From: a virus
Lineage: Duplodnaviria > Heunggongvirae > Uroviricota > Caudoviricetes
DNA length: 43,689 bases
Reading direction: 5' to 3' (one strand)
Virus record (IMG/VR): IMGVR_UViG_3300045988_038444
Coordinates: 1-43,689 of that record
Both the position numbers and the translations under genes were made by a program. Under the pieces are notes generated by a model. It saw only the letters and a program-made list of their open reading frames with translations. It had not been told where the DNA came from and did no database searches. This document shows, in pieces, positions 3,402-17,310 of the stretch. Position 1 is the stretch's first letter, and the number at the start of each line of letters is the position of its first letter.

Positions 3402-3744
3402 ACTCTGTTACATTGCCGGGCCTTATCGTGCTGATTGTGCGCTTAAAACATCCCGTAACGTGTCGCGCGCTGAACAGGCAGGTAAACGACTTGCTTTACA
3501 ACGTCCGGGGTGGTTCCCGGTTATCCCTCACAAGAACACCGAATTGTGGGACTTTGACGGCGGTTTACGCAATATACAACCCGAATACTACTTGTCAGGC
3601 ACATTAGAAGTTATGCGCCGTTGTGATGCCGTTCTGGTACTTCCTGATTATCGTCGTTCGTCCGGGACTATTGCGGAAATTGCAGAAGCTGAACGTCTGG
3701 GTATTCCTGTGTATTACAGTGTGGAGAGTATCCCACATGGTTGA
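3394..3744 (+). CDS. Nucleoside 2-deoxyribosyltransferase-like protein (DUF1937/DUF4406-type fold)
   Basis: Start taken at internal ATG 3394 (MIKLCYIAGPYRA...). N-terminal IAGPY motif and C-terminal SSGTIAEIAEAERLGIPV resemble the NDT family catalytic Glu motif. Confidence 0.45.
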   Translation: MIKLCYIAGPYRADCALKTSRNVSRAEQAGKRLALQRPGWFPVIPHKNTELWDFDGGLRNIQPEYYLSGTLEVMRRCDAVLVLPDYRRSSGTIAEIAEAERLGIPVYYSVESIPHG

Positions 3745-4516
3745 TGTTAAGTTATTTAATCAAGATTGTTTGTTCATGATGAACTTCATTACTGAAAAAT
3801 CTATTGATTTAATTCTTACAGATCCTCCGTATGGTACAACTGCTTGCAAATGGGATTCGATAATAGATTTAGATTTAATGTGGTCAAATTTAAATCGAAT
3901 CATTACGGATAAAGGGGCAATCGTTCTTACGGCAACACAACCATTTGCAAGTATTTTAGTAAATTCAAACATCAAAATGTTTAAATACGATTGGGTGTGG
4001 AATAAATCAAAACGAACTGATTTTGTAAGAGCAAAACTAAAACCAATGGGTGGTCACGAAAGCGTTTTGGTTTTCAGTAAAGGTTCTGTTGCGAATGGTG
4101 CATCTTCAATGATGAACTATTACCCACAAGGTTTGAAACGTATTAATAAAGTAGCTAAAAACGGCGGCGGTGGTTCTGGTTTTTTGGGTCGTAATGGTGA
4201 AAATTTAGGACCAAATAACAAGCTACACAAACCTACGTATATTCAAGAATTTACAGGATACCCATGCACTCAATTGAATATTCAGAGTGAGAATAAAACA
4301 GTTCATCCCACGCAAAAACCTGTAGAGTTAATGGAATATCTTATTTTAACTTACACAAAAGAAGGTGATACGGTTTTAGATTTCACAATGGGTAGTGGAA
4401 CAACAGGTGTTGCTGCCGTGAAAACTAATCGTAATTTTATCGGTATAGAGTTAGATAAAGAATATTTCGAAATTGCTAATAAACGTATTAATTTGGCATT
4501 GATGGGTATTTACTAA
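3737..4516 (+). CDS. DNA methyltransferase, beta-class N6-adenine/N4-cytosine type (DPPY ... FxGxG order)
   Basis: Start at ATG 3737 overlapping the upstream stop; motif IV DPPYG near N-terminus, motif I LDFTMGSGTTGVAA near C-terminus. Confidence 0.85.
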   Translation: MVDVKLFNQDCLFMMNFITEKSIDLILTDPPYGTTACKWDSIIDLDLMWSNLNRIITDKGAIVLTATQPFASILVNSNIKMFKYDWVWNKSKRTDFVRAKLKPMGGHESVLVFSKGSVANGASSMMNYYPQGLKRINKVAKNGGGGSGFLGRNGENLGPNNKLHKPTYIQEFTGYPCTQLNIQSENKTVHPTQKPVELMEYLILTYTKEGDTVLDFTMGSGTTGVAAVKTNRNFIGIELDKEYFEIANKRINLALMGIY

Positions 4517-4531
4517 CAAAGAGGATTGCTT

Positions 4532-4765
4532 ATGTCCACAATCGTTGAATTCAACCCTATGGATCCTGCTAAACGCCCGACAGGACGCTTTGCAAGATTG
4601 CCACAAACACGCGAACAGTTTTTTCCATTGTTAAACATGCGAGGGATTAAAACAGACCCACACGGGTTGATAGGAACATCCTTGTTTATGTACCGGACTG
4701 AATATCCGGTTCCTGCATCGTGGATTGAAGTATCGGTTGAAGATTTACTTAAGACTGTCTACTAA
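4532..4765 (+). CDS. Hypothetical protein
   Basis: Track ORF 4526..4765; ATG 4532 follows aagagga. Confidence 0.4.
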   Translation: MSTIVEFNPMDPAKRPTGRFARLPQTREQFFPLLNMRGIKTDPHGLIGTSLFMYRTEYPVPASWIEVSVEDLLKTVY

Positions 4766-4993
4766 CGCATTATGCATAGTTGCACATTTGAAATAAATAT
4801 CTAACCACTGGTCATTAACATCTGTTGAATCATTTCCTGTCAGACCGTTCAGCCGTGGAAGGTTTTCGGTCTGACACTTCTGAACTAATGCGGCCTGATA
4901 AACGGGCTTCTGCTTCGGTAACTCGTTCGTTGTACAGGCGTTGATATTCAGAAGTAAGACACTCATTACGAAAAACAGTATTAGTCTTTTCAT
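4745..4993 (-). CDS. Putative o-spanin (Rz1-like outer-membrane lipoprotein), start embedded in the i-spanin gene
   Basis: N-terminal signal-like MKRLILFFVMSVLLLNINAC with Cys after hydrophobic core; overlaps the 3' part of ORF 4830..5228 in another frame. Confidence 0.45.
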   Translation of the reverse strand: MKRLILFFVMSVLLLNINACTTNELPKQKPVYQAALVQKCQTENLPRLNGLTGNDSTDVNDQWLDIYFKCATMHNALVDSLK

Positions 4994-5228
4994 GTCGTAT
5001 TTCCACGATTTTAGTATTCTGTGACCAGCCAGCTAAACCACGAAGTACATCATCCGCCAGTTCCTGTTGTGCCTTTAACCGTTGTTGTTCCCGTTGTGCA
5101 TCGTCTAAACGTTCCTGACGTTCTTCATTTACCCGTACTTTATATCCCGCGTGGTAACACGTATACGCACCTACGCTTAACACAAGAACGGTCGCAACAA
5201 CGGTGATTAACACACTACGGGTTGTCAT
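4830..5228 (-). CDS. Putative i-spanin (Rz-like)
   Basis: N-terminal TMD (VLITVVATVLVLSVGAY) then charged coiled-coil-like region; position in lysis cassette. Confidence 0.5.
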   Translation of the reverse strand: MTTRSVLITVVATVLVLSVGAYTCYHAGYKVRVNEERQERLDDAQREQQRLKAQQELADDVLRGLAGWSQNTKIVEIRHEKTNTVFRNECLTSEYQRLYNERVTEAEARLSGRISSEVSDRKPSTAERSDRK

Positions 5229-5445
5229 TTGGCGTACCTCGTTGTTTATCTACAGCGATTTTTTTAGCACCAACATACTGACCTATACAGAAACCGAAAT
5301 AGGTTAACAACACTGTATCATCAAGTGTGCGGTCCACGGCCTGGTAAATCAGAATGCCTGTTACCACGAGGAAGCCTAAAGCCGCTTGTGCGCGGCTTAA
5401 AGAGATCCCCCCGGTTGTGTTACGTAATATACTGAATTTATCCAT
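5215..5445 (-). CDS. Small membrane protein, holin or antiholin candidate
   Basis: Start taken at internal Met (MDKFSIL...); hydrophobic segments ALGFLVVTGILIY and LLTYFGFCIG; next to endolysin. Confidence 0.4.
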   Translation of the reverse strand: MDKFSILRNTTGGISLSRAQAALGFLVVTGILIYQAVDRTLDDTVLLTYFGFCIGQYVGAKKIAVDKQRGTPNDNP

Positions 5446-5455
5446 GATTGTTATC

Positions 5456-5845
5456 TCACGCGGGATATTTCGCATGTGGTAACTGGAAGTGTGGACCATC
5501 TTTCAGTGTTTTCCAGTCACCACCCCATTCAACAGGGATATTCAGTTCTTTTGCAGCCTGTTTAAATGCAGTGGCAATTTGTTCGTAATACTTCCACTCC
5601 CACGACCCGGCAGATGTAGGATAAGCAAATACATCCACGGCGTGACCCGAAATATGGCGACTGTTCATCGTCTGACTTTTACCTGCAGCAACCAGTTGTC
5701 GTTGTCGTTCAACAGTTCGTAAACCTTCTGTGATACCGAAATCAACGGGTGATAACTGAAGTGCCCGACGCACGATTTTCACAAGATCTGAATTAACCCC
5801 TTTCAGATTATTTTCACTTCTCTGACTGAATTTAAAGTTACTCAT
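5456..5845 (-). CDS. Endolysin, L-alanyl-D-glutamate peptidase (peptidase M15, T5 Lys-like)
   Basis: 129 aa; ISGHAVDVF and WGGDW...DGPHFQL motifs typical of T5-type M15 endolysins. Confidence 0.8.
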   Translation of the reverse strand: MSNFKFSQRSENNLKGVNSDLVKIVRRALQLSPVDFGITEGLRTVERQRQLVAAGKSQTMNSRHISGHAVDVFAYPTSAGSWEWKYYEQIATAFKQAAKELNIPVEWGGDWKTLKDGPHFQLPHAKYPA

Positions 5846-6165
5846 TGCTTACTCCCGGTTTTACGTTGTTCCGCTTTCAAACCTTCAATAACAACTTTCA
5901 GGTCATTTGTTGACTGTGTTAGCTCTTTAACACTGGTGAGGATTTCAGCGTTCTGTGTTGCCTGATATTCAATTTTGATATCATGGACATCTACACGGGA
6001 TTCCACTCGTTTTGCCAGATTGAGCGCCTCGTGCGCATAGGTTTTTGCATCTACAATATCTTTTTCATTAGAATTGATTTGGTTTTGAGTTACCCCGTAA
6101 CCTACCAACCCCGTGGCAACAAATGCTATTATAGGCCAATACCTCAACACTGGGTTATCAGACAT
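5842..6165 (-). CDS. Membrane protein with N-terminal TMD and coiled-coil region (holin candidate)
   Basis: WPIIAFVATGLVGYGV hydrophobic segment; immediately upstream of endolysin with 4-nt overlap. Confidence 0.4.
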   Translation of the reverse strand: MSDNPVLRYWPIIAFVATGLVGYGVTQNQINSNEKDIVDAKTYAHEALNLAKRVESRVDVHDIKIEYQATQNAEILTSVKELTQSTNDLKVVIEGLKAEQRKTGSKQ

Positions 6166-6191
6166 TGTTCTACACTCCTGGAGACTTAAAG

Positions 6192-9164
6192 ATGGCTAAC
6201 TGTAACGATTATATCAGTGCTGATGATTTGAAAACAGGCAAACAAGCGATTTTACATATTGAACACGTTGCGAAAAGTCGTGATGCTAACGGTAATCATG
6301 CGTTGGATGTTACCGATACGATCCGTGATCAATCAGTTACCAACAAGACGCTTGATGGTTTAGAAAACCTGTACAATCAGGCTATATCTCAGGTTGGCTA
6401 TATCACAATGGATAGCTTCGAAGATGGCGCGACATTAACATTGCCTAACCAGGTGTTGCGATATAAGTCGACAGGAGAATATTACCGATGGGACGGTGAA
6501 TTTCCTAAAACCGTTTCTTCTGGTTCAACACCTGAAACTGCTGGTGGCGTTGGTCTTGGCGCGTGGGTTAGTGTTGGTGACGCTTCATTAAGAAGCCAGG
6601 TTTCTGACCCTGATGGCGCAACAAAATATCCAGATTTGCAGATCGCAAGATGGAGAGACACATTCGACCCGCGCGGGTGGAATGCAAAAGGTGATGGGGT
6701 CACCGATGACACCTCAGCGCTTAATGGCGTATTAAACGCCGCACCAGTTGGTCAGAAAATTAATGGCAATGGGAAGACATATAAGGTCACATCCCTGCCT
6801 GACATTAGTAGATTCGTCAATACTCGTTTTGTATATGAACGTATTCCTGGTCAGCCTCTTTTTTATGCTTCTGAAGATTTTATCCAGGGACAGTTATTTA
6901 AAATTACAGATACACCGTGGTACAACGCCTGGACGCAGGATAAAACGTTTGTATATGACAATGTCATCTATGCGCCTTTTATGGCTGGAGACCGCCATGG
7001 TGTAAATAACCTCCATGTTGCATGGGTTCGCTCAGGAGATGACGGGAAGACCTGGACAACGCCGGAATGGCTTACAGATTTACATGAAAACCATCCCACA
7101 GTTAACTATCACTGCATGAGTATGGGGGTTGTCAGAAATCGCCTTTTTGCTGTAATTGAGACGCGGACCGTGAGAGGAAATAAACTGCAGGTTGCAGAGT
7201 TGTGGGATCGCCCAATGAGTCGCAGCCTTCGCGTTTATGGTGGTATAACGAAAGCAGCAAATCAGCAAGTCGCTTATATTCGCATTACTGATCACGGATT
7301 ATTTGCTGGTGATTTTGTCAACTTCTCAAACTCTGGTGTTACAGGTGTTACCGGGAATATGACGGTGACTACTGTTATTGATAAAAATACTTTTACAGTT
7401 ACGACGCAAAATACCCAGGATGTGGATCAGAATAACGAGGGTGGATACTGGAGTTTTGGTACATCATTTCACTCGTCACCATGGAGAAAAACCAGTCTTG
7501 GAACTATTCCTTCTTTTGTTGACGGAAGCACTCCTGTTACTGAGATTCACAGTTTTGCGACGATTAGCGATAACAGTTTTGCTGTTGGCTACCATAATGG
7601 TGATATTGGTCCACGCGAGCTTGGGATACTCTATTTCTCTGATGCTTTCGGTTCTCCTGGTAGCTTTGTTCGCAGACGCATACCTGCAGAATATGAGGCG
7701 AATGCATCTGAGCCATGTGTAAAATATTATGATGGCATTCTGTATCTGACGACCAGGGGGACATTAAGTACTCAACCCGGTAGTTCATTGCACAGAAGCT
7801 CTGATTTAGGTATATCATGGAATTCTCTTCGCTTCCCAAATAATGTTCATCACTCAAACCTTCCTTTTGCCAAAGTTGGCGATGAGCTGATTATTTTTGG
7901 CAGTGAGCGCGCATTTGGTGAGTGGGAAGGAGGAGAACCTGATAACCGTTATGCAGGAAACTATCCAAGAACATTTATGACCAGAGTTAACGTCAATGAG
8001 TGGAGTCTGGATAATGTAGAGTGGGTTAATGTTACTGATCAGATTTATCAGGGCGGAATAGTTAACTCTGCGGTTGGTGTTGGTTCAGTTTGTATCAAAG
8101 ACAACTGGCTGTACTACATTTTCGGTGGGGAAGACTTTCTAAACCCATGGAGCATAGGGGATAACAACAAAAAATATCCTTATGTTCACGATGGTCACCC
8201 GGCTGATTTGTATTGTTTCAGGGTGAAAATTAAACAGGAAGAATTTGTTTCAAGGGATTTTGTCTACGGAGCCACTCCTAACAGAACGCTTCCTACTTTT
8301 ATGTCGACGTCAGGCGTGAGGACGGTTCCTGTACCCGTTGATTTCACAGATGATGTTGCCGTCCAGTCACTGACTGTCCATGCAGGTACATCAGGACAAG
8401 TTCGCGCGGAAGTCAAACTTGAGGGTAATTACGCCATTATTGCGAAGAAAGTACCGTCTGATAATGTTACCGCTCAGAGATTAATCGTTAGCGGCGGTGA
8501 AACAACGTCTTCAGCAGATGGTGCAATGATAACGTTGCATGGTTCCGGAAGCAGTACTCCACGTCGCGCGGTATATAACGCACTCGAACATCTTTTTGAG
8601 AACGGAGATGTTAAACCTCATCTTGATAATGTAAATGCTCTTGGTGGGCCTAGCAACCGTTTCACCACTGCATACCTCGGAAGCAACCCTATTGTTACTT
8701 CTAACGGAGAGAAGAAAACGGAGCCGGTAGTTTTTGATGATGCTTTCCTGGATGCCTGGGGTGACGTTCACTACATCATGTACAAGTGGTTAGATGCTAT
8801 TCAACTGAAAGGCAATGATGCTCGTATTCACTTCGGGGTTATTGCTCAGCAAATTCGTGATGTATTCATTGCACATGGTCTGATGGACGAAAACAGTACG
8901 GATTGTCGTTATGCCGTTCTGTGCTATGACAAGTATCCACGGATGACCGATATGGTATTTTCGCACAATGAAATCGTTGAACACACTGACGATGAGGGTA
9001 ATGTCACTACCACGGAAGAACCTGTATACACCGAGGTGGTTATTCACGAAGAGGGTGAGGAATGGGGTGTTCGGCCTGACGGAATTTTCTTTGCTGAAGC
9101 TGCTTATCAGCGAAGAAAACTGGAAAGAATCGAAGCCAGACTTTCTGCTCTTGAACAGAAGTAA
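6192..9164 (+). CDS. Tailspike: endo-N-acetylneuraminidase (endosialidase) with C-terminal intramolecular chaperone domain
   Basis: Track ORF begins at TTG 6165; ATG 6192 follows ggag. Asp-box SGDDGKTWT; C-terminal ~150 aa (DAFLDAWGDVHYIMYKW...IHFGVIAQQIRDVFIAHGL) resembles the self-cleaving chaperone domain of endosialidases and T5-type fibers. Confidence 0.75.
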   Translation: MANCNDYISADDLKTGKQAILHIEHVAKSRDANGNHALDVTDTIRDQSVTNKTLDGLENLYNQAISQVGYITMDSFEDGATLTLPNQVLRYKSTGEYYRWDGEFPKTVSSGSTPETAGGVGLGAWVSVGDASLRSQVSDPDGATKYPDLQIARWRDTFDPRGWNAKGDGVTDDTSALNGVLNAAPVGQKINGNGKTYKVTSLPDISRFVNTRFVYERIPGQPLFYASEDFIQGQLFKITDTPWYNAWTQDKTFVYDNVIYAPFMAGDRHGVNNLHVAWVRSGDDGKTWTTPEWLTDLHENHPTVNYHCMSMGVVRNRLFAVIETRTVRGNKLQVAELWDRPMSRSLRVYGGITKAANQQVAYIRITDHGLFAGDFVNFSNSGVTGVTGNMTVTTVIDKNTFTVTTQNTQDVDQNNEGGYWSFGTSFHSSPWRKTSLGTIPSFVDGSTPVTEIHSFATISDNSFAVGYHNGDIGPRELGILYFSDAFGSPGSFVRRRIPAEYEANASEPCVKYYDGILYLTTRGTLSTQPGSSLHRSSDLGISWNSLRFPNNVHHSNLPFAKVGDELIIFGSERAFGEWEGGEPDNRYAGNYPRTFMTRVNVNEWSLDNVEWVNVTDQIYQGGIVNSAVGVGSVCIKDNWLYYIFGGEDFLNPWSIGDNNKKYPYVHDGHPADLYCFRVKIKQEEFVSRDFVYGATPNRTLPTFMSTSGVRTVPVPVDFTDDVAVQSLTVHAGTSGQVRAEVKLEGNYAIIAKKVPSDNVTAQRLIVSGGETTSSADGAMITLHGSGSSTPRRAVYNALEHLFENGDVKPHLDNVNALGGPSNRFTTAYLGSNPIVTSNGEKKTEPVVFDDAFLDAWGDVHYIMYKWLDAIQLKGNDARIHFGVIAQQIRDVFIAHGLMDENSTDCRYAVLCYDKYPRMTDMVFSHNEIVEHTDDEGNVTTTEEPVYTEVVIHEEGEEWGVRPDGIFFAEAAYQRRKLERIEARLSALEQK

Positions 9165-9171
9165 TAAACAA

Positions 9172-9197
9172 AACCCCGCTTCGGCGGGGTTGTTTTA
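9172..9197. terminator. Bidirectional rho-independent terminator
   Basis: aaccccgc-ttcg-gcggggtt hairpin flanked by T-runs on both strands, between convergent genes. Confidence 0.65.
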
Positions 9198-9200
9198 TCA

Positions 9201-9611
9201 TCAGAACGGAATGTCGTCTGAAAAGTCCATCGGAGGCTCATTGCCTCCTTGTGGGCTTTGTTGTTTTTGTGGCTGCTGTTGCTGATTTGTTACCCATCCG
9301 CCTTGAGGTTGTTGGCCTGATTGCTGGCGCGGTTGCTGACCAGAATCATCACGTTTACCACCAAGCATCTGCATAACGCCACCCATCTGTGGAATGACAA
9401 TCTCCGTAGTGTATCGGTCTACGCCGTTGCTGTCAGACCACTTACGAGTGTGCAGCTGTCCTTCGATATAAACCTGTGAACCTTTGCGAAGGTATTCTCC
9501 TGCAACTTCCGCAAGTTTCCCGAAGATGACTATGCGATGCCATTCAGTCTGTTCCTTCTTTTCTCCTGTTTGCTTGTCTTTCCACTGCTCAGATGTTGCA
9601 ACAAAAAACAA
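9201..9611 (-). CDS. ssb: Single-stranded DNA-binding protein homologue, N-terminally truncated (host SSB-like), with DDIPF tail
   Basis: [56 protein letters not shown]...DRYTTEIV aligns with E. coli SSB from about residue 33 (sequence recalled from memory); TTG start, in-frame TAA four codons upstream, no obvious SD. Confidence 0.6.
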
Positions 9612-12516: not shown

Positions 12517-13031
12517 GTTGCATACGCCAGCAATGTAGGAAAACGTTCAAACGTATATAATTCACCTGTCCCGGCAAAGTTCGTAATAGGTGGTGATGCT
12601 GTGAACGTACAACCCTGTGGTTCGGTAGTAATGTCACCAGATTCCAGAAGATATGGCCCATCCTGAATATCAGACATGGAACCATCTTCACGATAAACAA
12701 ACGTTCGTAACTCAACAGATGGTTTTTCATTACTGTCAAGCGGAATTAAGTCCAGATATACACCGACAACTTCATTCAGATCCTGAATGGTGAATGAATA
12801 ATCCTGTGATAAATCGTTTTGTTTATTCGCCTTCTTGACGGACATCGGAACGTATTCGTACTCATATTCCTTACCGTCTTCATGTACAGCGATAAATCCC
12901 GGATAAACACTGGTGATGTATAGCGGATTAGGCCATGAACTATGATTCAGTTTCACACCGTCAACAACACCTTTACCAGTTGTTGCAACGGTTAATAATT
13001 CACGCAGTTCGTCTTTCATTCTGGTGTCCAC
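12513..13031 (-). CDS. Minor tail protein (putative)
   Basis: 172-aa ORF, position after tape measure, overlapping stops and starts. Confidence 0.4.
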   Translation of the reverse strand: MDTRMKDELRELLTVATTGKGVVDGVKLNHSSWPNPLYITSVYPGFIAVHEDGKEYEYEYVPMSVKKANKQNDLSQDYSFTIQDLNEVVGVYLDLIPLDSNEKPSVELRTFVYREDGSMSDIQDGPYLLESGDITTEPQGCTFTASPPITNFAGTGELYTFERFPTLLAYAT

Positions 13032-13519
13032 GCGTTATTTAAGAGTAAGCCAGTATCAATAATTTCTTTAAGGTAACAAGCAGCATAATCACCCTGGCAT
13101 TTAGTGATTAACAATCGTGATGCCATTGCACAACGGTCGATTACCGGAACAGCTTGTAACTGTAAATCGACAGATCCTTTCCATCCTACAACAGAGGATG
13201 AAGGGTTACTGACAATCTGAACAACGTGTTCCTGAATCAAACCGTTCACAAACAGTTGCATCACAAACCGCTTACTACCTTCAGCGATTTCCAGATTATA
13301 AAAATCGTCCCACCACTGAAGCATCGCCGGACTATATAACTGAATTGTACACGATACCTGAGCAGGTCCACCAAAGGCGCTACGACCTAACCGTGATAAC
13401 GTCCCGGAAACATCAGATTTAGTTACACCCCACGGTGGGCTATAACTGTAATTATCACGCTCAGGTAACACCATTTTCGCGCCGTACTCAAGCCGTGGTA
13501 AATCATCTGTATTGCTCAT
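13016..13519 (-). CDS. Minor or distal tail protein (putative)
   Basis: 167-aa ORF immediately downstream of tape measure gene. Confidence 0.4.
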   Translation of the reverse strand: MSNTDDLPRLEYGAKMVLPERDNYSYSPPWGVTKSDVSGTLSRLGRSAFGGPAQVSCTIQLYSPAMLQWWDDFYNLEIAEGSKRFVMQLFVNGLIQEHVVQIVSNPSSSVVGWKGSVDLQLQAVPVIDRCAMASRLLITKCQGDYAACYLKEIIDTGLLLNNAWTPE

Positions 13520-16398: not shown

Positions 16399-17310
16399 AT
16401 GAGTAGGAAACGTTTAACCACAGAAGAGTTTATCACGCGTGCCCGTGAAGTTCATGGGCACAAATACGATTACTCACTAGTGGAGTATTTGAATTGGCGC
16501 ACACCTGTGAAAATCATCTGTCCTATACATGGAGTGTTTGAACAAATTCCTAATAATCATTTAAAAGGACGCAAGTGTTTATTCTGTGCAGGAAATCAAC
16601 AATCAAATACCAATGAATTTATCACAAGGGGGCGCGAAGTTCATGGGGGTAAGTATGGTTATTCGTTGGTGAAATATAAAGACTCTCGGACCAAAGTGAA
16701 AATCATTTGTCCAATACACGGAATGTTTGAACAACGTCCATATAGTCACTTGCAGCAAAAAGCAGGTTGCCCACAATGTGCTTGGGAACAATTGTCTGAA
16801 CAAAGACGTTTATCCGCCGAAGAATTCATTACTCGTGCTCGCGAAGTTCACGGGGACCGTTACGACTATTCGTTGGTGGAGTATGTTAACAATTCCACCC
16901 CTGTAAAAATTATTTGTTCAGAACACGGTGTGTTTGAACAGACACCGGGCAATCACACATTTATGAAAGCTGGCTGTCCCCAGTGCGCTGAAACAGGTTT
17001 TAATCCGTCAGAACCCGGCACGTTATATGTACTCGCTGATGATAAACAGTATCCCACTCTGATTAAAATTGGTATTACAAACGACTTAAAACAGCGACTA
17101 CGACAACTACAACGACGAACTCCGCATCTTGTGGTTAAACTTGTATCGTATCCGTTCCCACATGGCGCTGACGCTTACAAACTGGAACAAGAGGTACACA
17201 AGGTCTTTCACGAACTTAATGCGCGTCTCAAAGGCTTTGACGGTGCTACAGAGTGGTTTAAATACTCTCCTGCAATCCTCGATTACATAAATGAAAAAGC
17301 CCGGAACTAA
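16399..17310 (+). CDS. T5orf172-domain (GIY-YIG-like) protein with three N-terminal zinc-ribbon-like repeats; homing-endonuclease-like
   Basis: Three ~60-aa repeats EEFITRAREVHGxKYDYSLVEY...PVKIICPIHGVFEQ...GCPQC; C-terminal YVL...KIGIT...TEWF matches the T5orf172 pattern. Confidence 0.65.
   Translation: MSRKRLTTEEFITRAREVHGHKYDYSLVEYLNWRTPVKIICPIHGVFEQIPNNHLKGRKCLFCAGNQQSNTNEFITRGREVHGGKYGYSLVKYKDSRTKVKIICPIHGMFEQRPYSHLQQKAGCPQCAWEQLSEQRRLSAEEFITRAREVHGDRYDYSLVEYVNNSTPVKIICSEHGVFEQTPGNHTFMKAGCPQCAETGFNPSEPGTLYVLADDKQYPTLIKIGITNDLKQRLRQLQRRTPHLVVKLVSYPFPHGADAYKLEQEVHKVFHELNARLKGFDGATEWFKYSPAILDYINEKARN

Follow-up and report, generated by a model that had tools for sequence, protein, structure and literature searches.

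The viral record IMGVR_UViG_3300045988_038444 of IMG/VR is a stretch of 43,689 nucleotides (nt) from the Caudoviricetes, analysed here at its full length and called the window. It carries a tailspike gene of 990 codons. Very probably, the product of this gene is a homotrimeric endosialidase spike, which acts as the single receptor-binding protein of an uncultured 9NA-like siphovirus and targets the K1 capsule. The enzyme is a familiar one, and the novelty is confined to its being grafted onto a long-tailed phage of the 9NA/Sasha type.

An endosialidase tailspike

The gene is a single open reading frame (ORF), running from an ATG at 6192 to a stop codon at 9162-9164. An in-frame TTG at 6165 gives the longest reading, and does nothing more than lengthen the tailspike ORF. 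The ATG at 6192 has GGAG 8 nt upstream, which is a good Shine-Dalgarno site, and is also the start annotated in KarinMuster_Bas82 (Bas82), the closest cultured relative. The precursor has a predicted mass of 109.9 kDa; cleavage would give a mature chain of 92.1 kDa and a chaperone of 17.9 kDa.

All four endosialidase domains of Pfam are present in the 990-amino-acid (aa) spike, in addition to Tail_spike_N and Peptidase_S74 (PF13884, aa 840-897, expectation value (E) 8.7e-9). In a sequence search of the PDB, chains of the K1F endosialidase (endoNF; 1V0E, 3GVL and others) match aa 160-836 at E = 0, and the phi92 endosialidase 4HIZ is found at E 2.6e-268. The K1F construct that includes the intramolecular chaperone, 3GW6, matches aa 717-990 at E 3.5e-148.

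An original prediction, made from the letters of the sequence alone, had called this gene an endosialidase-type tailspike, and the profile searches and the searches of structure sequences agree with it, placing the spike among the phage endosialidases, the endo-N-acetylneuraminidases of GH58. With End_beta_propel at E 4.3e-231 and the K1F chains at E = 0, the similarity to endosialidases is, on these sequence scores, not due to chance. The Asp-box SGDDGKTW which that prediction had read lies exactly at its coordinates (aa 281-288), and there is a second one at aa 536-543. The self-cleaving, chaperone-like domain it had placed at the C-terminus is likewise found, both through Peptidase_S74 and through 3GW6, with the Ser-Lys pair kept. 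All coordinates are collected in Table 1.

Table 1. Coordinates of the tailspike gene, its domains and neighbouring features in the window.
Feature	Positions	Strand	Evidence
Tailspike precursor gene, 990 aa	6192..9164	+	ORF; Pfam architecture; PDB matches; masses
Sashavirus-type anchor segment, aa 1-101	6192..6494	+	100% nt and aa identity to Bas82 tail fiber; AlphaFold2 (AF2) model
Tail_spike_N domain, aa 64-130	6381..6581	+	PF18668 E 6e-19; 9occ_G E 3e-39
End_N_terminal, endosialidase N-terminal extension, aa 165-231	6684..6884	+	PF12218 E 2.6e-37
End_beta_propel, catalytic six-bladed beta-propeller, aa 232-681	6885..8234	+	PF12217 full-length match, E 4.3e-231
Asp-box 1 SGDDGKTW, aa 281-288	7032..7055	+	Motif S-x-D-x-G-x-x-W
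End_beta_barrel, inserted in the propeller, aa 343-425	7218..7466	+	PF12195 E 8e-46
Asp-box 2 SSDLGISW, aa 536-543	7797..7820	+	Motif S-x-D-x-G-x-x-W
End_tail_spike, stalk domain, aa 682-836	8235..8699	+	PF12219 E 2e-77; T836 is the predicted mature C-terminus
C-terminal intramolecular chaperone / self-cleaving domain, aa 837-990	8700..9161	+	PF13884; 3GW6; 96.1% identity to K1F C-terminal domain
Bidirectional intrinsic terminator-like hairpin AACCCCGC-TTCG-GCGGGGTT	9172..9191		Lies between the convergent tailspike gene and SSB remnant
5'-truncated remnant of a single-stranded DNA-binding protein (SSB) gene, 136-aa ORF, TTG start	9201..9611	-	PF00436 profile positions 28-101 of 104
Tail tip / baseplate hub protein (gpJ-like), 843 aa	9633..12164	-	phrog_469 E 6e-218; phrog_31 central tail fiber J; Sf11 gp14 9occ_E E 4.7e-28
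Distal tail protein candidate, 167 aa, proposed docking site of the spike	13016..13519	-	AF2 and Foldseek

Residues were mapped by aligning the spike with K1F gp17, CUS-3 siaK1, the IME207 spike and the Bas82 spike. A recent deep-mutational scan gives the catalytic residues of K1F as H350, R549, E581, R596 and R647 (PMC12632334). These correspond to H269, R475, E507, R522 and R573 of the spike, all of which are conserved. The supporting network is kept as well: K1F Q330, D331, H527, S528, K585 and N699 are Q249, D250, H453, S454, K511 and N625 here.

In the K1F record the mature peptide ends at T910 and the chaperone begins at 911, and the spike residue aligned to this end is T836. The cleavage motif reads IVT836↓S837-NGEK-K842, where S837 and K842 are the counterparts of K1F S911 and K916. 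A serine with a lysine five residues later is the autocleavage dyad of endosialidases (PMC3742443). The original prediction had proposed alignment with characterised endosialidases as a check; that alignment finds every catalytic and self-cleavage residue conserved, and a propeller nearly identical to that of CUS-3.

K1 specificity and host

Over the propeller (aa 232-681), the protein is 98.7% identical to CUS-3 and 70.0% to K1F. For the stalk (aa 682-836) these figures are 94.8% and 58.7%, and for the C-terminal domain (aa 837-990) they are 55.8% and 96.1%. The propeller differs from the one in CUS-3 by some 6 substitutions in 450 residues. On the DNA level, gene nt 701-2456 has only 8 mismatches to CUS-3, or 99.5% identity. 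BLAST puts the identity to CUS-3 at 97%, versus around 100% in the sliding table; the mismatches cluster at both ends of the match. The GenBank record of the CUS-3 protein (siaK1, ABQ88383.1) cites direct-assay evidence for endo-alpha-sialidase activity.

This core of 1,756 nt is also found in bacteria. At an identity of at least 99%, it is part of a chromosomal 'phage tailspike/endosialidase' gene in 184 of the 5,426 complete E. coli genomes. The carriers include MS7163, NU14 and DSM 30083, of which the first and the last are K1 strains. MS7163 is a K1 reference strain of sequence type ST95 (PMC13001214). K1 chromosomes of extraintestinal pathogenic E. coli (ExPEC) are among those with a copy.

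The near-identity of the core both to CUS-3 and to E. coli chromosomes points to a recent exchange inside E. coli K1 cells. This in turn is the strongest available argument for E. coli K1 as the host, over other producers of polysialic acid. K1 specificity is strongly supported by homology, and the phage almost certainly targets K1-encapsulated E. coli. From the 98.7% identity to the CUS-3 enzyme we infer hydrolysis of alpha-2,8-polysialic acid and K1-dependent infection.

By the example of K1F and CUS-3, the precursor of 990 aa would form trimers assisted by the chaperone domain at its C-terminus (aa 837-990), which would then cut itself off between T836 and S837 by means of the S837/K842 pair. 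The mature spike of 836 aa would bind alpha-2,8-polysialic acid, the material of the E. coli K1 capsule, and hydrolyse it in the six-bladed propeller, with E507, R522, R573, H269 and R475 as the active residues. Cleavage would open the virion a way through the capsule, down to the outer membrane, while the N-terminal 135 or so residues would keep the spike on the tail tip. If an endosialidase is what gets the virion through the capsule, productive infection should require the K1 capsule.

A spike that still bound polysialic acid, but had little or no catalytic activity, would be an adhesin and not a depolymerase. Inactive endosialidases that still bind their substrate do exist, and are in use as reagents for the detection of polysialic acid (PMC5380687). 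Here however all five catalytic residues and the network around them are conserved, and the propeller has only the few substitutions relative to CUS-3 given above. In addition, the 11 near-identical copies in independent metagenomes suggest a functional gene that is in circulation. An adhesin is therefore very improbable, and the spike is best read as an active depolymerase.

The spike might also be an active endosialidase of a phage with a different natural host, either another bacterium that makes polysialic acid, or E. coli K92 with its mixed alpha-2,8/2,9 linkages. Polysialic-acid capsules do occur in bacteria other than E. coli, a homologue of 76% identity is located in a chromosome of Atlantibacter hermannii, and database records give endosialidase phages a variety of hosts. 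Against this stand the core, with its 99.5% DNA identity to the CUS-3 prophage gene and its presence in 184 E. coli chromosomes, which argue for recent exchange in K1 cells, and a phage backbone that is 95% identical to E. coli phages. An additional activity on K92 would widen a K1 tropism, not replace it. Such a host is improbable, if somewhat less so than an inactive spike, and E. coli K1 remains the preferred one.

Some findings do weigh against the K1 reading. The phage is known solely from metagenomes. Endosialidase-gene phages are listed with hosts that are not K1: IME207 with Klebsiella, LNA3 with K-12 and 01KA with Acinetobacter. Either these labels are unreliable metadata, or the K1 rule is not absolute. 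Finally, Q853 in the K1F stalk is a Met in this spike, as it also is in CUS-3. In K1F, R837, S848 and Q853 have a role in a polysialic-acid-binding site of the stalk.

IME207 (KX523699.2, spike at 3535-6465) is a curious record in its own right. It is named a 'Salmonella phage', its host is given as Klebsiella pneumoniae, and its spike is K1F-like at nearly every residue. Unless the host metadata are in error, this spike is used on a host that is not K1. Further K1F-like records with odd hosts are Acinetobacter phage vB_Aba_01KA, and LNA3, listed on K-12.

The homologue from Atlantibacter hermannii is encoded on a contig of 4.56 Mb. It is an endosialidase of 984 aa with a Tail_spike_N anchor, and its location hints at a prophage, and perhaps at a capsule resembling polysialic acid outside of E. 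coli.

Lipopolysaccharide is reportedly the secondary receptor of one K1F-like podovirus. O-acetylation of the capsule by the NeuO of CUS-3 protects K1 strains from a lytic K1 phage (PMC13001214). This means that the host range may depend on the neuO phase.

The phage backbone

Compared to Bas82, 89% of window positions 9200-34000 is covered at 95.5% nt identity; compared to Sasha, this is 72% at 92.4%. The same region also matches the Sashavirus phages BDX09P1, PJ16, AVIO78A and Sergei, and more distantly 9NA. By genome similarity and synteny, the phage is to be placed as a 9NA-like siphovirus of Sashavirus or Nonanavirus. These two names are paraphyletic (BASEL paper, PMC11990801).

The lysis genes (holin, M15 endolysin, membrane protein and spanin) lie on the minus strand, directly upstream of the spike gene. 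The spike gene is the lone plus-strand gene at this locus, and is convergent with the gene for the tail tip (843 aa), which comes after those for the minor tail proteins and the tape measure. This order of lysis genes, spike and tail tip is shared with Bas82 and 9NA.

No further spike-like or fibre-like ORF was found within the window. Phages like 9NA are described as having a single glycan-targeting receptor-binding protein (BASEL paper, PMC11990801), and a lone spike-like gene in the window is in agreement with this. The spike of 9NA itself has been assigned as an endorhamnosidase in a review (PMC5380687).

Recombinant origin of the gene

In a collection of 50,697 phage genomes, no record covers at least 80% of the tailspike gene. 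Its parts can however be traced. Sliding identity and informative sites show gene nt 1-303 to be 100% identical to Bas82, with the last Bas82-specific site at nt 303. From nt 308 the gene follows a contig of 47 kb, here called L007, from the NCBI metagenome assembly GCA_024181985.1. Identity to L007 is 98.1% on the nt level from gene nt 205 to the stop codon. From beyond aa 101 and on through the truncated SSB remnant, the sequence is 98-100% identical to that of an uncultured Skatevirus/Shuimuvirus-like K1 phage.

The genes of L007 come in the order 828-aa hub, spike, and convergent SSB-ERF-exonuclease, as they do in IME207 and in the Skatevirus phages of BASEL. The 5' joint is between gene nt 303 and 308 (window 6494-6499, aa 101-103), inside the Tail_spike_N coding region common to both parents. 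At the other end, the L007-like tract runs past the stop codon and through the terminator hairpin, into the minus-strand SSB-like ORF up to about 9602.

Judging by this pattern of identities, the gene is a product of homologous recombination. The recipient, a Bas82-like Sashavirus, retained aa 1-101 of its own spike, and the remainder came from a Skatevirus/Shuimuvirus-like K1 phage. One crossover lies in the Tail_spike_N coding region, the other past the stop codon, in the SSB remnant.

The gene of the donor type is in its turn a mosaic of older date, with a centre of the CUS-3 type and a chaperone domain and linker of the K1F/IME207 type. A four-way mosaic of Bas82, IME207, CUS-3 and K1F was considered, and was replaced by a two-parent last step once L007 turned out to match from nt ~308 to the end. 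By the same comparison, the mixture of CUS-3 and K1F parts is a property of the donor lineage.

The window comes from a metagenome, as a contig, and the two parental phage types are homologous where the joint lies; both would fit with a junction made by the assembly software and not by nature. An identical junction of 63 nt is present however in an independent IMG/VR genome of 58,013 bp. ENA contigs of other samples also encode the same 990-aa protein, between Sashavirus flanks that are identical, and members of its cluster are on contigs of 56-58 kb from several sources. The same flanks and junction on independent contigs exclude an assembly chimera, and we leave it next to no chance against recombination in phages. 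Scans for the exact junction gave one locus in viral contigs, and nothing in the collections of metagenome contigs and genome contigs.

A possible exchange cassette

The SSB remnant sits between the tail-tip gene and the tailspike gene, at the 3' end of the imported tract. It is without the first 27 or so profile positions of the oligonucleotide-binding (OB) fold, and has kept the C-terminal DFSDDIPF tail. Homology to the full-length SSB of the Skatevirus/Shuimuvirus-like phages L007 and IME207 ends sharply at ~9602, where Sashavirus sequence has a terminator-like hairpin after the tail-tip gene. The breakpoint is the same in Bas82. The remnant is absent from 9NA, Sasha, PJ16 and AVIO78A.

Two metagenomic contigs, L005 (13304-13311) and L006, have a deletion of 66 nt in the remnant, which aligns to window ~9495-9560 and leaves only a gene of 61 aa being called. 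This deletion is consistent with a remnant under no selection. Probably, the SSB remnant is a scar of recombination, with a present role as a homology arm.

Bas82 has two segments, and no others, in common with the Skatevirus phages Bas77-81: gene nt 204 to ~500, and the SSB region. The centre of the Bas82 spike gene (positions 5193-7136 of its record) matches the Kayfunavirus Bas105 from nt 283 onwards. Homology of K1F to the gene in the window also starts at nt 283, and the crossover in the window is at nt 303-308. Gene nt ~283-308, in the Tail_spike_N coding region, is a recurrent joint, and exchanges with Kayfunavirus podoviruses make use of it too.

Taken together, the recurrent joint and the sharing of the SSB region suggest a cassette for the exchange of host specificity, with two homology arms. 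One arm would be the Tail_spike_N coding region, the other the non-functional 5'-truncated SSB remnant, and the comparisons suggest that at least three phage groups take part in the exchange. It is tentative, and we come down slightly on the side of doubt, that the tailspike locus as a whole is such a cassette, in which arms bracket a variable receptor-binding segment that moves between unrelated siphovirus groups (Skatevirus/Shuimuvirus-like phages and a subset of Sashavirus/Nonanavirus). If so, the SSB pseudogene persists because homologous recombination there swaps host specificity, and K1 tropism entered the 9NA-like lineage by an exchange of this kind.

Contigs L005 and L006 are twins of 99.4% identity. 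In both, the loop of the hairpin next to the tailspike gene is inverted to CGAA (around 12981-13000 in L005), and the stem is unchanged.

The SSB remnant is also present in the E. coli Sashavirus BDX09P1 (OZ035775.1). This phage has the same anchor, followed by a spike of 701 aa in total with BNR_2, a sialidase-like propeller. The BDX09P1 spike may represent a second sialic-acid-related specificity in Sashavirus, or one for some other acidic sugar.

The anchor and its docking site

The original prediction had taken the N-terminal ~130 aa as the domain that attaches the spike to the particle. For the family at large this stands. A set of 67 homologues that are not endosialidases, and share only the N-terminus of the spike (13-21% of the query), was used to look at conservation. 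Sixty-one of the 67 align from residue 1. Conservation is 0.73-0.94 up to aa 130, goes to 0.49, 0.23 and 0.12 after that, and has collapsed past aa ~135. For this one gene the picture needs refinement, in that the joint is at aa 101-103, inside Tail_spike_N.

Behind their anchors, the 67 homologues carry C-terminal Pfam domains that include pectate-lyase-3, beta-helix, P22 endorhamnosidase, BNR_2, SASA and others. The spike is thus of the modular type anchored by Tail_spike_N, with a conserved N-terminal beta domain and an exchangeable receptor-binding part. Tail_spike_N is common to Sf11 gp13, the tailspike proteins (TSPs) of CBA120 and K1F gp17.

An AF2 model of aa 1-165 has a predicted local distance difference test (pLDDT) score of 76.7. 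It shows a helix at 10-28, a hairpin at 39-52, a helix at 54-68 and a confident beta domain at 71-127. Foldseek pairs this beta domain with those at the N-terminus of CBA120 TSP1/3/4 and of G7C gp63.1. By sequence, the best N-terminal match is 9vvr_A. As a docking clue this entry was dropped: the aligned sequence is like K1F gp17, and the entry is mentioned in no phage paper.

In the Shigella siphophage Sf11, cryo-electron microscopy (9OCC) shows six spike trimers on the tail, each held by a bundle between its N-terminal helices and a single adaptor helix from gp17, the distal tail protein (PMC12724387). The docking contacts cited there involve Glu129-Glu152 (PMC12724387).

A possible counterpart of gp17 is encoded by the gene that comes after the tape measure. 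Neither this protein of 167 aa nor a tail protein of 172 aa has a match among PDB sequences or in Pfam, and it was the comparison of folds which identified the former. In its AF2 model (pLDDT 69), a beta-sandwich is joined by a long helix at the C-terminal end, residues 128-159. In a Foldseek search of the PDB, only 9occ_C/9occ_D from the Sf11 tail match at E<0.001 (E 5.5e-5, probability 1.0, template modelling (TM) score 0.51). These chains have 163 and 165 residues, which fits gp17 as modelled there, from residue 3 to 165, and the long helix has the same position in both. Tail-tip chains of lambda and T1 rank next. Sf11 also has a homologue of the 843-aa tip protein, its hub gp14.

By analogy, the N-terminal helices of the spike probably bundle with helix 128-159 of the 167-aa distal tail protein. 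Six spike trimers would then sit around a ring of distal tail proteins as in Sf11, with the 843-aa hub as the central tip. The earlier idea that the N-terminus may indicate which tail protein the spike docks onto holds to the extent that a partner can be named, by analogy.

Three things speak against this arrangement. It is built on an AF2 model of medium confidence (pLDDT 69, helix 54-62) and on a TM score of 0.51. The 167-aa protein has no sequence similarity to Sf11 gp17. And the first ~50 aa of the spike are not homologous to Sf11 gp13.

Other features of the window

A tRNA scan of the window found no tRNA genes. The tailspike gene and the holin-like gene (minus strand, 5842-6165) start divergently, only 26 bp apart (6166-6191). 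In a consensus promoter scan, sigma-70-like sites were no more frequent than in shuffled sequence, and there were none upstream of the spike gene. With no such promoter in the 26-bp gap, the spike gene must be transcribed either from within the lysis genes or from a promoter of another type.

At 16399-17310 on the plus strand, there is a gene for a protein of 303 aa with DUF723/T5orf172/MUG113, apparently like a homing endonuclease. It sits on the strand opposite to the tail genes, as an insertion between the one for the tape measure and those upstream. In L005 and L006, a 59-aa Imm_superinfect protein precedes it. An analogous T5orf172 gene adjoins the tape measure in L007, which is an unrelated contig of the donor type.

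Occurrence and significance

The exact protein was already present in public metagenome data, as a cluster of 11 members on contigs of up to 58 kb. Two of the 11 are NCBI entries under the name 'MAG: catalytic beta propeller domain of endosialidase [Bacteriophage sp.]'. Neither the collection of 50,697 phage genomes nor the literature yielded a cultured Sashavirus or Nonanavirus with this spike, and no paper was found that links either genus with endosialidase or K1.

Endosialidase spikes have been described for the podoviruses K1F, K1E, K1-5 and CUS-3, for the myovirus phi92, and for the siphoviruses 63D, K1G/K1H and JSSK01 (PMC5380687, PMC11641727). Their modular exchange is a textbook example (PMC5380687, PMC11641727). 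The 9NA/Sasha-like phages of about 58 kb now add a further backbone that carries an endosialidase, one that recurs in metagenomes and is not among the isolates of the phage collection searched.

E. coli K1 causes neonatal meningitis, sepsis and urinary tract infection, and K1 phages and endosialidases are candidates for therapy and diagnostics. What is known of endosialidase structure and mechanism is left unchanged by this spike. What the gene does offer is a clean, base-resolved example of a host-range module moving between phage genera.

Comparison with known systems

Bas82 and the other Sashavirus/Nonanavirus phages have the same backbone, at ~95% nt identity for Bas82, and their spike genes are at the same locus. 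In Bas82 aa 1-101 of the spike are also identical. The difference is in the receptor-binding part, which in phages of the Bas82 type targets O-antigens, O16 in the case of Bas82 (PMC11990801).

The immediate donor lineage is that of the Skatevirus/Shuimuvirus-like K1 phages (P0002-P0011, for example contig BRDB01017406.1 of GCA_024181985.1), with IME207 as the cultured relative. Their convergent arrangement of tailspike and SSB genes is the same as in the window. They differ in the first ~65 aa of the spike, in having a genome of ~47 kb on another backbone, and in their full-length SSB. The catalytic part of IME207 is of the K1F type, and not of the CUS-3 type.

CUS-3 is a P22-like podovirus (Lederbergvirus), and a prophage of E. 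coli K1 RS218. Its propeller, beta-barrel and stalk are essentially those of the spike, and its catalytic residues are identical. Its anchor however is P22-type (PF09008 in homologues), where the spike has one of the Sashavirus type plus Tail_spike_N. CUS-3 is also temperate, and the phage described here has a siphovirus backbone of the virulent type.

From its Tail_spike_N-like region onwards to the C-terminus, K1F gp17 (PDB 1V0E, 3GVL and 3GW6) has its domains in the same order as the spike. The crystallised catalytic part is 69% identical, and the cleavage motif IVT↓SNGE(K/R)K is common to both. K1F on the other hand has a podovirus tail and an N-terminal adaptor of the T7 gp17 type that adds ~85 residues, and its propeller and stalk are distinctly diverged.

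Sf11 gp13 is ~80% identical to the spike over aa 53-142, the Tail_spike_N region. Its extreme N-terminus is not homologous, and as an enzyme it acts on O-antigen. With 457 aa and an extra C-terminal appendage, gp17 of Sf11 is longer than the distal tail protein of 167 aa here (PMC12724387).

The K1-dependent siphoviruses K1G, K1H and JSSK01 (Kagunavirus) likewise have a single endosialidase spike with Peptidase_S74 at the C-terminus (PMC11641727). Their backbone is an unrelated one, of the Guernseyvirinae and ~44 kb in size.

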